From IMG/VR virus record IMGVR_UViG_2531839330_000011: a stretch of 35,429 nt of DNA; one strand, written 5' to 3'. Below, in pieces: positions 1-34,513 of this stretch. The stretch is from a virus (Duplodnaviria > Heunggongvirae > Uroviricota > Caudoviricetes). Made by a program: the position numbers and the translations under genes. The notes below the pieces were generated by a model. The model worked only from the letters and a program-made list of their open reading frames with translations. It searched no databases and was not told the DNA's origin. The number at the start of each line of letters is the position of its first letter. Within the stretch, counting starts at the first letter, position 1.

Positions 1-1002
1 TTACCCTCTATTGTCAAAAGGGTTCAATTCAACAGCAGCCTCTAAATGACCTGGAGCAAAATGCGCATAACGCATAGTCATTTTTATATCGCTATGCCCC
101 AGTATTTTTTGCAACACAAGAATATTTCCGCCCCGCATCATAAAATGACTGGCAAACGTGTGACGTAGCACATGAGTTAATTGCCCATCAGGAAGCTCGA
201 TCTTCGCTCTCTTAATTGCAGCGTCAAAAGCCTCATAACATGGTGAAAATAGCGCTCCTCGTTTTTTGGGAAGCATAGCCTGCAATTGAGGTGAAATCGG
301 TACAGTGCGGTTCTTCTTTCCTTTAGTTTTAACAAATGTGATTCGACCGGGCAGTACTTGAGATTGCTTTAATCCTTCTGCTTCACTCCACCGAGCACCA
401 GTCGCAAGCCCAATACGGACAACAACCCCCAAATCTTTATTCCGTGACTCATCACACGCAATCAGAAGGCGTTCAATCTCATCTACATACAGAAACGCCA
501 GTTCCTTTTCTTCCTCACGAAACTTGCGAATACCAGTCAGGGGGTTTTCACCAGACCACTCCCCAAGGCGCTTCAGTTCGGCAAAAACAGCATGTAGATA
601 TGACTGCTCGCGATTAACGGTTGCTTCACTAAGTTTTTTCTTCCCCTTGGGATTCCACTCTCCTGATAACCTTCTTTCCCGATAAGTGGCAAACATATTT
701 TTGTCAAACTGAGAAGCAAATGGATCTCCCAGCCTGGAACAAATCGCCTCAAGTTTGACTTTGCGCTCTGCACCAGAGGACAAGGTTTTACCGTACATCT
801 CAAACCAACGAGCAATCAACTCAGAAAGACGAGGACCAGAACCATCTTGAAACTCGTCTCCAACTCTACTATTCATTAAACGGCGCTCATAAGAGAGCGC
901 CTCACTTTTTGTCGCAAACTGTTTACGAATGCGTTTTCCCGATGCCCCGTAGGGATAACATTCGCAAAGCCATTTACCTGATGGAATCTTACGAACCGAC
1001 AT
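1..1002 (-). CDS. int: Phage integrase, tyrosine recombinase (P2 Int-like), 333 aa
   Basis: C-terminal catalytic region with conserved R...HxxR...Y pattern (LRHTFASH...MTMRYAHF) and size match P2-type integrases. Start codon at 1002, stop at window position 1. Confidence 0.93.
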   Translation of the reverse strand: MSVRKIPSGKWLCECYPYGASGKRIRKQFATKSEALSYERRLMNSRVGDEFQDGSGPRLSELIARWFEMYGKTLSSGAERKVKLEAICSRLGDPFASQFDKNMFATYRERRLSGEWNPKGKKKLSEATVNREQSYLHAVFAELKRLGEWSGENPLTGIRKFREEEKELAFLYVDEIERLLIACDESRNKDLGVVVRIGLATGARWSEAEGLKQSQVLPGRITFVKTKGKKNRTVPISPQLQAMLPKKRGALFSPCYEAFDAAIKRAKIELPDGQLTHVLRHTFASHFMMRGGNILVLQKILGHSDIKMTMRYAHFAPGHLEAAVELNPFDNRG

Positions 1003-4075: not shown

Positions 4076-4492
4076 ATGAACGCAAAAGAAAAAAATATTA
4101 TCAATACATTAAAAATAGTGTCAGCAGAGCAAGACAAGCTGTCCAGGGCAGCCCAGAAAGATAATCAACATATGGCAGCGCTTTACGCACTGACCATCGC
4201 AATAGCCGCCTCTGAAGCAGCCAAAGTTATTGAGGAACAGAGCAAAGAAATCGACACTCTTAAAACACAGTCAACAGTTGCAGCCATGAATCCGTCCAGC
4301 ATTGGACGCTGCATTTATATTCTTGGTTCAGCAATGATGCTGCAATACACCATTATTGCCGAACTGCACGGCAAATACCTGATAACGCCTTACCACACAA
4401 AAGAGTCAGAGCTTCTGACAAATCTCCGCCTGATAGAACGCTCTCAAGCTGTATTCATTGATGACGCGCAATGTGCCGTATTTAACGCATAG
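4076..4492 (+). CDS. Hypothetical protein, AT-rich (moron-like)
   Basis: 138-aa ORF. Preceded by a 90-bp non-coding gap and GGAG RBS. Visibly more AT-rich than the surrounding phage genes. Confidence 0.5.
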   Translation: MNAKEKNIINTLKIVSAEQDKLSRAAQKDNQHMAALYALTIAIAASEAAKVIEEQSKEIDTLKTQSTVAAMNPSSIGRCIYILGSAMMLQYTIIAELHGKYLITPYHTKESELLTNLRLIERSQAVFIDDAQCAVFNA

Positions 4493-5289: not shown

Positions 5290-5600
5290 ATGCACACACA
5301 AAAAAACCGCTTGCCATGCCTCAATCGGTCAGGTTACATTTCCGCTGCAGCTCATAAAACGGGTGCCGGGATTCTCAACCCGATACAGAGCAAAGCGCAT
5401 AACCGCGCAAGCGGTTTTTTTGTGCGTACTGTATTGCCACGTCTTTTTCGCGTCAGAATTATGGCGGGGCGTACGGGGCCGACTTCGGTCGGGCCGGATT
5501 CTTTGCTCTCCGGTGTTGAGAACCCTGTACGTCTCGCCACCCCGAGATTCTCAACTCTGGATGGTGAGTTATTTCTATCACCGAGCAAAGAGGCCACACC
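5290..5600 (+). other. Highly structured non-coding segment (candidate ncRNA or terminator/regulatory element)
   Basis: 15-bp perfect inverted repeat AAAAAAACCGCTTGC (5300..5314) / GCAAGCGGTTTTTTT (5407..5421). Local hairpin CCGC-GCAA-GCGG followed by T7. Hairpin GGCCGAC-TTCG-GTCGGGCC near 5478..5497. Repeated ATTCTCAAC motifs at about 5380 and 5548 with an inverted copy near 5514. ORFs called across this interval lack protein-like composition. Confidence 0.35.
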
Positions 5601-31672: not shown

Positions 31673-32782
31673 ATGACCGACACCACCATGCAATTGCTCA
31701 GTCAGGGCACAGACCCCGTGAAAATGCCGGATTTTGATATTCTCGCGGAGGGTAAAACGCTGTCCGGCGTGGCAGAGCGCCTGATGAGCCTGTCGCTGAC
31801 CGACAACCGGGGATTTGAGGCGGACCAGCTCACCATCACGCTGGATGATGCCGATGGCCAGTTGCAGCTACCGCCACGGGGCGCGCGTCTGACGGTTCTC
31901 ATTGGCTGGAAGGGAGAACCGCTGACAGAAAAAGGCACTTACATTGTTGATGAAATCGCTCACGAAGGACCGCCGGACAGGCTGACTGTTTCAGCCAGAA
32001 GCGCAGATTTTCGGGATGAATTTAACGTTAAACGTGAGGTGTCCTGGCATGATGTGACCGTTGAGCGTGTGGTATCCGCCATCGCTCATCGGTACGGTCT
32101 GAAACCGCAAATCAGCGAAATGCTGATGGATATCGAAATCGACCACGCCGACCAGACCGAAGAAAGCGACATGTCCTTTCTTACGCGCATGGCGGAAATG
32201 CTGGGCGCAATCACCACGGTAAAAAGCGGTAATCTGTTATTCATTATGCCAGGCGGTGGCGTGAACGCACAGGGCCAGCCGTTGCCATCGTTCGCCATCA
32301 CGCGCAGCAGTGGCGATCGCCATCAGTTCCGCATTGCTGACCGCGAAGCGTATACGGGGGTACGCGCTTACTGGCTTGATCTTAATTACGGGAAAAAGAA
32401 AAAAGTCAGCGTGAAACGCCGCAAACCGCCAAAACCCAAAAAGGAGAAAAGCAGCAGCCGTGAAGGTGATTATATGGAAGGTGCGGAAGGCAATGTGTTT
32501 GTGTTACGCAAGACTTATCAGAACGAGCAGGCAGCAAGACGCGCAGCGGCGGCAAAGTGGCAACAACTACAACGCGGAGCCGCATCATTCTCCATCACGC
32601 TGGCACGTGGACGAGCAGAACTCTACCCCGAAATGCATGGCACGGTAACAGGATTTAAAAGCGAGATTGATAATCAGGACTGGATTATTGCAAAAGCCGA
32701 GCACACCATTGATAACAGCGGCTTTACCACGCAGCTTGAGCTTGAGGCAAAAATCCCGGAATGGATAGCGGAAACAGAGTGA
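31673..32782 (+). CDS. D: Late control / tail protein D (P2 gpD-like)
   Basis: SLTDNRGFEADQL, SARSADFR and WHD motifs typical of the phage gpD family. Start set at ATG 31673 with GGGAGGG RBS. Confidence 0.88.
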   Translation: MTDTTMQLLSQGTDPVKMPDFDILAEGKTLSGVAERLMSLSLTDNRGFEADQLTITLDDADGQLQLPPRGARLTVLIGWKGEPLTEKGTYIVDEIAHEGPPDRLTVSARSADFRDEFNVKREVSWHDVTVERVVSAIAHRYGLKPQISEMLMDIEIDHADQTEESDMSFLTRMAEMLGAITTVKSGNLLFIMPGGGVNAQGQPLPSFAITRSSGDRHQFRIADREAYTGVRAYWLDLNYGKKKKVSVKRRKPPKPKKEKSSSREGDYMEGAEGNVFVLRKTYQNEQAARRAAAAKWQQLQRGAASFSITLARGRAELYPEMHGTVTGFKSEIDNQDWIIAKAEHTIDNSGFTTQLELEAKIPEWIAETE

Positions 32783-32824
32783 GCAACTTAGAATAGCGGC
32801 AGCACCACGTTAAAGGAGGTCGCT

Positions 32825-33085
32825 ATGTTCCGTTGTCCGCTTTGTGGCGCATCTGCCCGTATCCGCACCAGTCGTCCGGAAAATGATTCAAACACCGTGC
32901 GGCAAAAGTATTACCAGTGTAACAACCTGGAATGCGGCGTATGCTTCTCAACACTGGAAGCTTTCCATAAATTCACATCGAAACACGCCTCCGGCGTTCA
33001 CTCATCAGAAGGTATCCCGTGGCATGAGCTGCCAGCTTCACACAGGGGAAACAATCAGATGAGTTTGCCTTTACCTCAGAATTAA
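32825..33085 (+). CDS. ogr: Ogr/Delta-type zinc-finger late transcription activator
   Basis: MFRCPLCGASARIRTSRP...YYQCNNLECGVCF is a Cys4 zinc finger of the P2 Ogr family. Terminal position in the prophage, as in P2. Confidence 0.85.
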   Translation: MFRCPLCGASARIRTSRPENDSNTVRQKYYQCNNLECGVCFSTLEAFHKFTSKHASGVHSSEGIPWHELPASHRGNNQMSLPLPQN

Positions 33086-33108
33086 CAGGCAGAATTGCCG
33101 GAGTAACA

Positions 33109-33228
33109 AAAAAGCGATAGATTACGTGCGGGTGCCTTTCGGCTGATGGTCGGAGGGAATACCCGAAGGCCGGATGTGGAAAGGCCCCGGAAAACATTTC
33201 TGTTTAACCGAGGCCCTAACCCGTCAAC
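33109..33228 (+). repeat. Copy A of a roughly 100-120 bp element (imperfect direct repeat of 34121..34228), immediately upstream of the hok-like gene
   Basis: By-eye alignment of the two copies, about 70-75% identity, with shared core GTTTAACC-AGGCCCTA (33202..33218 versus 34205..34221). Confidence 0.5.
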
Positions 33229-33274
33229 CTAGCAAGTGATAGGTTAGCGCCTCTCCAACAAAGGAGCAAGCGCT

Positions 33275-33415
33275 ATGTCGCAAAAATCGCTTACGGCCAT
33301 CACGTTCTGCGTGACGGTAATCCTCATCATCTGGATGCTGCACGGTTCGCTGTGTGAAATACGGATGAGCTTCTGGGGAGCGGAGTTTGCGGCGTTCTTA
33401 CAGTGTAAGCAGTAA
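33275..33415 (+). CDS. Hok/Gef-family type I toxin (small membrane peptide), 46 aa
   Basis: MSQKSLTAITFCVTVILIIWMLHGSLCEIRMSFWGAEFAAFLQCKQ has one TM helix followed by the Hok signature SLCEIR and ...AAF.... AAGGAG RBS 9 nt upstream. Not in the supplied ORF track because it is under 60 aa. Confidence 0.7.
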   Translation: MSQKSLTAITFCVTVILIIWMLHGSLCEIRMSFWGAEFAAFLQCKQ

Positions 33416-33503
33416 GGAAACCGCGACGGGGAGGCAACTCCCCGTCAATCGGTTGCCGGGGTAAGGCCGATAAGGCACCCTATCTCATAGGCATGAATAA
33501 CAA

Positions 33504-33536
33504 CCCCGCAGCGTAAAAACTGCGGGGTTTCTTTTT
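33504..33536 (+). terminator. Rho-independent terminator (CCCCGCAG-loop-CTGCGGGG plus T-run)
   Basis: 8-bp GC stem and TTTCTTTTT tract downstream of the hok-like gene. Confidence 0.75.
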
Positions 33537-33604
33537 GGAACTCTCACTAGCTAGTGAGCCGTTAACTGCACATAATGCTCGCACAACAAATCAGTTAAAA
33601 GAGA

Positions 33605-33886
33605 TTACTCAGCATTCTCCTGCTTCCATTGCCGGATCATTTCATCGGTAACATCACTTTCATAACATACCACGTCATCCCCTCCAGTACGGCTATATGC
33701 ACTGCGTCCACCACATCTACTACCATTCCTTGCATGATTATACGGACACGCACAATTGCCTGGATAAGATTCAATGGATTCTTTAATTATTTCTTTCTTG
33801 ATCTGAGCATCTGACTTTCCTGTTGCTGCATACCCACTAAAAGATACCAAACAAAGGCAGATTGCCATTAATAAACCACATCGCAT
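33605..33886 (-). CDS. Small secreted Cys-rich protein of unknown function
   Basis: Start trimmed to the internal Met that opens a signal peptide (MRCGLLMAICLCLVSFSGYAA). Mature part has four Cys (CACPY...RCGG...VCY). Strongly AT-rich. Confidence 0.45.
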   Translation of the reverse strand: MRCGLLMAICLCLVSFSGYAATGKSDAQIKKEIIKESIESYPGNCACPYNHARNGSRCGGRSAYSRTGGDDVVCYESDVTDEMIRQWKQENAE

Positions 33887-34120
33887 ACCGATACACTCTA
33901 TTACTAACCAATCATAGCCCACATCATAAAATCGAGATGAGGAGTACAACACCTTTAACAAGAAGGTGCCATCACGATAATATGCCGTGCAATTCATCAA
34001 AAAAAAGATCTATATCAAAGAGATAGAGTTATTATCAGTGCTGCAGACATCAGCATTCGAGGCAGCAGAAAGACAGTAAATCTAACGAATTTGTCTTTTT
34101 CTCAGGATGTTGTCAGATTA

Positions 34121-34228
34121 AAAAAGATAGAGTAGCGCAGACACCTTTTGGTGGATGGTAGGAGGAAAAATGAAGTTGAGTGGGAAGATCCCAGAAAAAA
34201 CCTTGGTTTAACCAAGGCCCTAGTTCAA
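34121..34228 (+). repeat. Copy B of the roughly 100-120 bp element (see 33109..33228)
   Basis: Same by-eye alignment as copy A. No hok-like ORF follows copy B. Confidence 0.5.
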
Positions 34229-34359
34229 TATGCGAAATGCAGATGAGTTGCAGGAGAGTTTTGCTTCACCCTTAGAGTTTAAACAGACGTGTACTATCAT
34301 TATTTCTGCATATCGCCACACCATCGCCACTTTACCGCCATTTAACAAAATACAAATAC

Positions 34360-34383
34360 AAAAAAACCACCCGAAGGTGGTTT
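34360..34383 (-). terminator. Rho-independent terminator of the tRNA operon (minus-strand hairpin CCACC-TTCG-GGTGG plus T7)
   Basis: Plus strand reads AAAAAAACCACCCGAAGGTGGTTT, about 45 nt beyond the tRNA-Leu 3' end. Confidence 0.8.
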
Positions 34384-34426
34384 CACGACACTGCTTATTG
34401 CTTTGATTTTATTCTTATCTTTCCCA

Positions 34427-34513
34427 TGGTACCCGGAGCGGGACTTGAACCCGCACAGCGCGAACGCCGAGGGATTTTAAATCCCTTGTGTCTACCGATT
34501 CCACCATCCGGGC
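34427..34513 (-). tRNA. leuZ: tRNA-Leu (anticodon UAA)
   Basis: Reverse complement GCCCGGATGGTGGAATCGGTAGACACAAGGGATTTAAAATCCCTCGGCG...GGGTACCA matches E. coli leuZ as recalled, with long variable arm and encoded CCA. Confidence 0.93.

Follow-up and report, generated by a model that had tools for sequence, protein, structure and literature searches.

In hok/sok loci, a closed and stable hok mRNA is slowly processed to a translatable form, and an unstable antisense RNA, Sok, triggers decay of the mRNA. Losing the locus, or stopping its transcription, leads to cell death. In the chromosome of E. coli K-12, the hok loci are said to have been found by Pedersen and Gerdes in 1999 to be IS-disrupted or rearranged. 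The tac/fbi 5'-3' closure is a described hallmark of hok mRNA (PMC9841398). [quoted passage not shown] Among the phages relevant here, P88 is a described P2-like coliphage (PMC5285337).

The stretch of DNA analysed, 35,429 nucleotides of the virus record IMGVR_UViG_2531839330_000011 (hereafter the window), represents a P88-type, P2-like prophage (Xuanwuvirus) of E. coli, integrated in the tRNA gene leuZ. A previous reading from the sequence alone had noticed two imperfect direct repeats near its right end, enclosing a hok-like toxin gene and a gene for a small secreted Cys-rich protein, and had proposed duplicated regulatory or small-RNA modules or the ends of a small element as their nature. 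Our analysis makes it highly probable that the first repeat (copy 1) is the leader of a live hok gene and the second (copy 2) a dead hok relic, at the right end of the leuZ prophage.

Setting of the prophage and its attachment boundary

The right end of the window runs into leuZ, cysT, glyW and pgsA, and in sister genomes the element lies between yecA and leuZ. The features that frame the prophage are the following:

1-1002, - strand: tyrosine integrase (Pfam)
32825-33085, + strand: ogr, late-gene activator (Pfam Ogr_Delta with 52.4 bits, cut-off 26.3; annotated by RefSeq in sister genomes)
34312-34345, + strand: candidate integrase arm-type sites of the attP P arm, ATCGCCAC, ATCGCCACTTT and CCGCCATTT (proposed from motifs)
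34358-34481, strand not given: attR, the true prophage boundary (124 of 124 positions identical to attL of sister prophage L005, 3949-4072)
34427-34513, - strand: leuZ, tRNA-Leu(taa)

The att duplication was defined by setting the window against an empty site (L006) and against attL of a 99.8%-identical sister prophage (L005). It comprises the 3' part of leuZ from the anticodon loop together with 69 nt downstream, including the terminator of the tRNA operon. In most E. coli genomes, the window sequence from 34358 rightward is the sole match. Since the duplication begins at 34358, everything to the left of this position, including both repeat copies, is phage-borne. The repeats had been judged too divergent to serve as att cores, and the comparison bears this out (about 72% identity against the perfect 124-bp duplication at 34358-34481).

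The candidate arm-type sites lie 11 nt apart and are kept in all lineages, and motifs resembling them adjoin int (L005 positions 4141 and 4170). A scan of genome contigs with the P-arm motif ATCGCCACNNCANCGCCACT, a loose pattern, returned 120 loci, all 120 of them chance matches without similarity to the region.

Two related sequences in direct orientation

Smith-Waterman comparison of 33000-33300 with 34000-34330 returned only one alignment, in direct orientation, between 33109-33219 and 34121-34223, with approximately 70-72% identity. Its score of 50 compares with 18.0±2.3 (maximum 28) in 300 shuffles. Similarly, blastn of 32701-33560 against 33561-34365 gave one significant match, 33110-33218 with 34120-34222 (69.7% over 109 columns, E 1e-10). 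The idea that formal alignment might show the similarity to be insignificant is contradicted by both the shuffles and the blastn result. The copies are spaced 1004 nt apart, their best ungapped block is 43 nt at 77%, and their longest exact runs are 8 nt. The 17-nt core GTTTAACCNAGGCCCTA, with a chance expectation of 0, is found at exactly two sites in the 35-kb window, 33202 and 34206, both on the + strand. The initial observation of two direct copies roughly 1 kb apart, sharing a core and enclosing hok and the Cys-rich gene, is thus confirmed, and within the window the core leads to these two sites only.

The homology extends beyond the repeat on both sides. Leftward, the last ~10 codons of ogr (33054-33085) correspond to 34080-34110; an ogr remnant further upstream of 34080 was considered and discarded, tblastn with Ogr giving only non-colinear matches with E >0.2. 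Rightward, after a gap of 125 nt, 34223-34287 corresponds to hok codons 24-46 (33345-33413). The alignment of this coding segment scores 22 against 9.4±1.3, and none of 1000 shuffles equalled it.

Copy 1 and the intact hok gene

The elements of the first hok locus are:

33095-33123, + strand: putative hok promoter TTGCCG-17-TAGATT (read from the sequence)
33109-33219, + strand: repeat copy 1, comprising the promoter -10 region and the first ~90 nt of the hok mRNA leader (alignment, Rfam, leader pairs)
33130-33536, + strand: predicted full-length hok mRNA (MFE fold, terminator scan)
33175-33234, - strand: putative Sok antisense RNA, ends approximate (by analogy with Sok of plasmid R1)
33275-33415, + strand: intact hok-family toxin gene, 46 aa (Pfam PF01848 HOK_GEF, 30.1 bits against a cut-off of 22; PHROG 251, E 2.5e-23)

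Transcription of hok probably starts near 33130, in agreement with the first base of the Rfam sok match (RF01794), which spans 33130-33285 from end to end with 47.3 bits (E 4.3e-9), below the gathering score of 59. In silico, both the MFE and the centroid folds pair 33130-33144 of the mRNA with a fold-back element at 33465-33480. The fold of 33130-33536 has an energy of -178.4 kcal/mol (z -7.3), and the terminator scan places the hok terminator hairpin at 33502-33529. Within the leader, the - strand has a promoter-like TTGCTC-17-TAACCT at 33269-33241, read from the sequence, and a terminator-like hairpin at 33186-33218 (fold z -3.4). These could delimit a Sok-like RNA, proposed by analogy with Sok of plasmid R1. 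The coding region is preceded by a strong ribosome-binding site, AAGGAG, at 33262-33267.

The locus resembles hok/sok of plasmid R1 in encoding a membrane toxin of ~50 aa with an SLCEIR motif behind a long structured leader. It further shares with the hok/sok family a predicted 5'-3' fold-back pairing (the tac/fbi closure), a putative antisense gene within the leader and an intrinsic terminator (mechanism in PMC9841398). The right end of copy 1 is a GAGG box that aligns with the mok Shine-Dalgarno sequence of plasmid R1. However, the ORF list of the window holds no + strand mok frame of at least 25 codons that would begin ahead of hok and run into it, and the AAGGAG site belongs to hok itself. 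Given the Rfam score below the gathering threshold and the lack of a mok frame, the live locus departs from the textbook model of plasmid R1. The pairing of the leader is maintained, with 24.8 of 25 base pairs kept across 41 distinct homologous functional leaders. In this leader, the 5' element would pair with the 3' fold-back element and so hold the full-length mRNA closed and untranslated. By analogy, the live locus presumably acts like other hok/sok loci, and its role could be prophage maintenance or abortive infection.

Related phages show the same association of copy 1 with hok. In Chuche, P88 and P884B11, copy 1 and hok are 94-96% identical to the window, and Stx2 phages carry a hok locus ~83% identical to both. 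The ogr-hok block, ending at ~33540-33548, forms the right end of P88-like prophages beside ihfA or serS. In Chuche, P88, P884B11, the Stx2 phages and the ihfA/serS prophages, the hok locus directly precedes att, and both the Cys-rich gene and copy 2 are absent. Among the P88-like and Stx phages compared, the leuZ-type right end alone carries the extra Cys-rich gene and the second hok sequence. Phage-borne hok homologues are annotated as "MokW-like host killing" or Hok/Gef.

Copy 1 therefore belongs to the gene itself: it is the promoter-proximal leader segment of the hok mRNA and also complements the 3' hairpin of the putative Sok. It does not bracket hok, as had been supposed: it lies inside the gene and accompanies it in P88-like phages that lack copy 2 and the Cys-rich ORF. 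Among loci gathered up to and including the first viral-contig scan, a Hok-like ORF follows 110 of the 123 matches to the copy-1-type core, and the copy-2-type core matches all belong to one and the same relic. We thus rejected a dispersed repeat of the REP or ERIC kind. The notion of a common repeat family unrelated to the genes is right in so far as a multi-copy family exists, that of the hok loci, and fails in that the family is tied to its genes.

The cargo gene and the decayed second hok

To the right of the live hok lie:

33605-33886, - strand: small secreted Cys-rich ORF, 93 aa in RefSeq (PHROG 27544, unknown function, E 3.6e-58)
34080-34120, + strand: left edge of the relic, with sequence like the ogr 3' end and the hok promoter (alignments)
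34121-34222, + strand: repeat copy 2, decayed hok leader (Smith-Waterman and blastn alignments)
34223-34287, + strand: what is left of the final third of a hok coding region (alignment, tblastn)

The Cys-rich ORF is cargo between the live hok and the relic, which we refer to as the fossil. No Pfam family reaches its cut-off on this ORF, a Sclerostin match at 16.6 bits being spurious, and neither tblastn nor blastn finds a match to it in the phage collection. The block 33545-34360 as a whole has no match in that collection either, and the ORFs of the window include no transposase or recombinase between the two copies.

In the fossil, hok coding homology begins right after AGGCCCTA, which ends at 34222. 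As copy 2 runs into this homology, it is a fragment of a gene and not the end of an element. The junction marks an internal deletion of 125 nt, corresponding to 33220-33344 in copy-1 coordinates. It took away the putative promoter of Sok and the 5' end used for recognition and, on the hok side, the ribosome-binding site, the start codon and all of codons 1-23, which include the membrane-spanning ones. The remaining coding segment has a frameshifting indel of 4-5 nt, and tblastn against Hok pairs SLCEIRMS with SICEMQMS and FAAFLQCKQ with FASPLEFKQ in different frames. It lacks the stop codon (CAG-ACG against CAG-TAA in copy 1), and both the 3' UTR and the fold-back element are missing. At the left edge, promoter-like elements remain (TTGTCA at 34110-34115 and TAGAGT at 34128-34133), separated by a spacer of 12 nt against 17 nt in copy 1; the spacer is 12 nt in every lineage. 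With the 125 nt removed, fossil and copy 1 are 73-78% identical in ~210 nt of alignment. Copy 1 is more closely matched by the fossils of other lineages (77-78%) than by the window's own (73%), which agrees with the prediction of common descent.

Of the pairs formed in the copy-1 leader, 13-15 of 25 are still possible in the fossils (16 distinct variants). Keeping about half of them matches unconstrained decay at ~72% identity (0.72 squared). The Rfam sok model RF01794 finds no match in copy 2 even at E up to 10, and only the terminator half of the Sok complement is left. In the window's sub-lineage, the core forms a perfect palindrome, CCTTGGTTTAACCAAGG, followed by six U on the - strand (34196-34222), and so resembles a terminator; palindrome and U-run are missing in the O157 and E09 lineages. 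Short reading frames in copy 2 (34155/34170-34211, 34148-34246, 34180-34275 and 34230-34406) were discarded as genes, their start codons and frames not being kept between lineages. In the O157 lineage, the one at 34155/34170-34211, which has a perfect AGGAGG site, carries ATA instead of its ATG. The fossil is unlikely to belong to a functional attP: it lies past the candidate arm sites, ~190-400 nt away from the end of the identity block at the anticodon loop.

Copy 2 is, in sum, a gutted hok pseudogene, part of another ogr-tail/hok unit in which no defining component of a hok/sok locus survives. To judge from its lesions and divergence, the fossil is most likely functionless. The suggestion that the repeats are regulatory or small-RNA modules hence stands for their ancestry, both deriving from a hok leader that also encodes the 3' half of Sok, and falls for copy 2 as a working module.

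Distribution and divergence of the fossil

Of 5426 complete E. coli genomes, 651 contain the fossil region (34040-34360), at a median of one site each, and the RefSeq rows listed show no annotation over it. It adjoins leuZ in all five sister-genome contexts inspected, and in viral and metagenome contigs long enough to show it, the fossil runs on to the leuZ terminator. The deletion junction is identical in every uninterrupted viral-contig variant and in 21 of 21 metagenome contigs, and this common junction points to a single ancient event. All seven copy-2-type core matches are the same fossil, one of them interrupted by an IS. In the viral and metagenome contigs collected by exact match to a fossil-specific 23-mer, a sample biased toward close relatives, no intact pre-deletion second hok was found.

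The surroundings of the fossil vary. In O157:H7, an IS30 has removed ogr-hok, and the Cys-rich gene and the fossil remain. In ECCTRSRTH03, an island riddled with IS elements and carrying restriction and TIR-domain genes lies at leuZ, and the fossil forms its right end.

Identity between the window and the other lineages is 82-87% for the fossil leader, ~86% for the fossil CDS part and 86-91% for the P arm. Where the respective gene is still present, it is 98.6-100% for the hok CDS, 96-99.6% for the Cys-rich ORF and 93-100% for ogr. Wherever hok persists, variable flanks surround a nearly constant CDS. The fossil is the fastest-diverging segment of the region; its constraint is relaxed, and it evolves like unconstrained, non-coding DNA. 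The integrases of the window and of O157:H7 share 99.3% identity, fossil and P arm just 82-91%. That the integrase is far more alike than the right arm implies a separate recombinational history of the latter. The fossil persists in all lineages despite a divergence of up to ~17%.

Origin of the arrangement and alternative explanations

Copy 2 would descend from an older or foreign hok locus that was inactivated several times over, by the internal deletion, the frameshift, the loss of the stop codon and of the 3' UTR, a promoter spacer 5 nt too short and the breakage of 11 of 25 leader pairs. Since then, the leuZ-specific attachment arm may have carried it passively. The most probable source of the layout is recombination between related phages, which would have placed a fresh ogr-hok and a Cys-rich moron upstream of a right end with a dead or dying hok. 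The main alternative for the origin of the fossil gives the repeats the same identity, and takes the fossil and the Cys-rich gene as the remains of an earlier prophage or island at leuZ, fused with the present one through a deletion after tandem integration. We regard this route as possible but somewhat doubtful. The fossil keeps the order of ogr tail and hok typical of a P88-like right end, the right arm is shared by other leuZ elements such as the island in ECCTRSRTH03, and the contrast between the integrase and the fossil with its P arm, window against O157, would fit an arm of separate descent. However, no internal hybrid copy of att lies between 33545 and 34357, and the block is joined to the same ogr-hok in all lineages that keep them.

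The remaining explanations differ in what they take the repeats to be. Copy 2 might be a working regulatory or small-RNA module, giving a transcript that titrates Sok or modulates hok, or acting on the - strand as a terminator or insulator, so that read-through of the leuZ-cysT-glyW operon does not reach the Cys-rich gene. Its retention in 651 genomes, the preserved -10-like hexamer (TAGAGT/TAGATT) and the - strand hairpin with six U at 34196-34222 in the window's lineage would agree with such a role. We nonetheless hold it, in either form, to be quite unlikely, as the promoter spacer is too short in every lineage, the leader pairs are not maintained, palindrome and U-run are missing in the O157 and E09 lineages, the ORF at 34170-34211 with its Shine-Dalgarno sequence is not conserved (ATA in the O157 lineage) and no segment of the region diverges faster. 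Moreover, the surviving terminator half of the Sok complement matches over 43 nt at 77% with exact runs of at most 8 nt. The direct orientation, the separation of ~1 kb and the two accessory genes enclosed also recall a small mobile cassette that delivered the Cys-rich gene together with hok to the leuZ end, the repeats being its termini or its target duplications. Yet the copies are just ~72% identical, no gene for a transposase or recombinase separates them, copy 1 is internal to a hok unit that occurs where the Cys-rich gene and copy 2 are absent, and copy 2 extends into hok-CDS homology. Comparison with the prophage-free site (L006) sets the boundary of the insertion at the 124-bp att duplication and not at the repeats, and among the genomes and loci examined there was no empty or solo-repeat site and no recombined or deleted hybrid form of the two copies. 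A mobile cassette is thus extremely unlikely, and the proposal that the repeats are the ends of a small element does not hold. Finally, similarity by chance or low complexity, for which exact runs of merely 8 nt might speak, can practically be dismissed in view of z-scores of ~14 for the leader and ~10 for the independent coding segment, the colinearity of three parts (ogr tail, leader and CDS) and the closer likeness of other-lineage fossils to copy 1.

Taking copy 2 as a dead hok relic leaves room for a role that is sequence-independent or rests on short motifs, which could be the spacing of the attP arm or a terminator. Co-option of the fossil as a cis element of the leuZ-type arm is conceivable, although we consider it very unlikely. 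As a - strand terminator or insulator, it might separate the tRNA operon from the Cys-rich gene, or it might be a source of transcription crossing attP. In the latter variant, such transcription would occur only in the excised circular phage and oppose int, resembling the dependence of lambda sib on the integration state. If true, co-option would account for the retention of the fossil in every lineage.

Relation to other degenerate hok loci

The fossil appears to be unannotated and is otherwise an ordinary degenerate hok, of a kind already documented. Like other degenerate hok loci, it is a relic without toxin and antitoxin functions. It differs from those of K-12 in having arisen by an internal deletion that joined the leader to the distal CDS, and not by IS insertion. 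A further difference is its location ~1 kb downstream of a live paralogue, in tandem and inside a phage attachment arm.

What appeared to be a bracketing repeat therefore resolves into a live hok/sok locus and an unannotated pseudogene, and the significance of this is mainly one of correct annotation. This prophage type occurs in roughly one in ten complete E. coli genomes, among them O157:H7 and further lineages that produce Shiga toxin, and its right end is a mosaic, where a toxin-antitoxin module was probably replaced and not repaired. It offers a small, clear instance of how type I toxin-antitoxin loci turn over in the attachment arms of phages. The fossil might also represent a lineage marker for leuZ-integrating elements.

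Attachment Arm and Integrase History

The two ends of the prophage differ markedly in divergence. Between the window and the O157:H7 genomes the integrase (window 1-1002) is 99.3% identical, whereas the decayed second hok locus, here termed the fossil, together with the P arm (the attachment arm left of the 124-bp att block; window 34080-34357), is only 82-91% identical between the same two lineages. Given this discordance at the level of sequence identity, the attachment arm seems to have been exchanged independently of int. Short motifs are found in both arms.

Window 34312-34345: ATCGCCAC, ATCGCCACTTT and CCGCCATTT, immediately left of the att block, with 11-nt spacing
L005 (sister locus carrying attL) 4141-4180: CGCCATTT and ATCGCCACTTTTT, in the other arm, adjoining int

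These motifs are kept across all lineages compared and are candidate arm-type binding sites for the integrase.

Insertions and Deletions at the leuZ Locus

Insertion sequences have been active at this locus. In strain 2011C-4251 an IS3-family element is inserted (L002 3923) a few bases beyond the junction left by the internal deletion of the fossil (...AGGCCCTAGTTC/TGAACCGCC). In O157:H7-type genomes (L001, L008) gene D is truncated by IS30 and the ogr-hok segment is deleted, an event that spared the Cys-rich gene and the fossil. In strain ECCTRSRTH03 (L007 1-3000) the fossil-bearing leuZ right arm adjoins an island encoding a type I restriction subunit and a TIR-domain protein, along with IS1 and ISEc52, and phage tail genes are absent there. 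This strain harbors either a heavily eroded prophage or a different element using the same leuZ arm.

The core that the fossil shares with the leader of the intact hok gene is now, in the sub-lineage of the window, a perfect palindrome, CCTTGGTTTAACCAAGG (window 34201-34217), followed on the minus strand by UUUUUU. In that orientation it looks like a terminator, a form absent from the other lineages compared.

The Intact hok Gene and the Cys-Rich ORF

In plasmid R1 hok follows the mok-coupled model, but a search for ORFs of at least 25 codons overlapping the intact hok found no mok-like frame in window 33200-33275, where stop codons shut every candidate. There is also a strong AAGGAG site belonging to hok itself, and its translational control may differ from that of R1. 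Conservation within this locus is lowest at window 33220-33274 (78-100%).

The neighboring Cys-rich secreted ORF was called in two forms.

33605-33886, minus strand: RefSeq call, 93 aa
33605-34000, minus strand: mechanical call extending to a TTG at 34000, 131 aa

Its N terminus resembles a signal peptide. The ORF matches PHROG 27544, a family annotated as of unknown function; it matched no Pfam family at the cut-off and nothing in the GenBank phage collection. Since its conservation reaches 96-99.6%, it is probably a functional moron.

Rfam Matches in the Early Region

Two Rfam matches above the gathering score adjoin each other in the prophage early region (window 5347-5544).

5347-5421, plus strand: isrK, 59.5 bits
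5457-5544, plus strand: C4 antisense RNA, 78.5 bits

Together, the two adjacent matches suggest that a P2-type backbone here carries a c4/ant-like module of the P1/P7 type, serving immunity or anti-repression.
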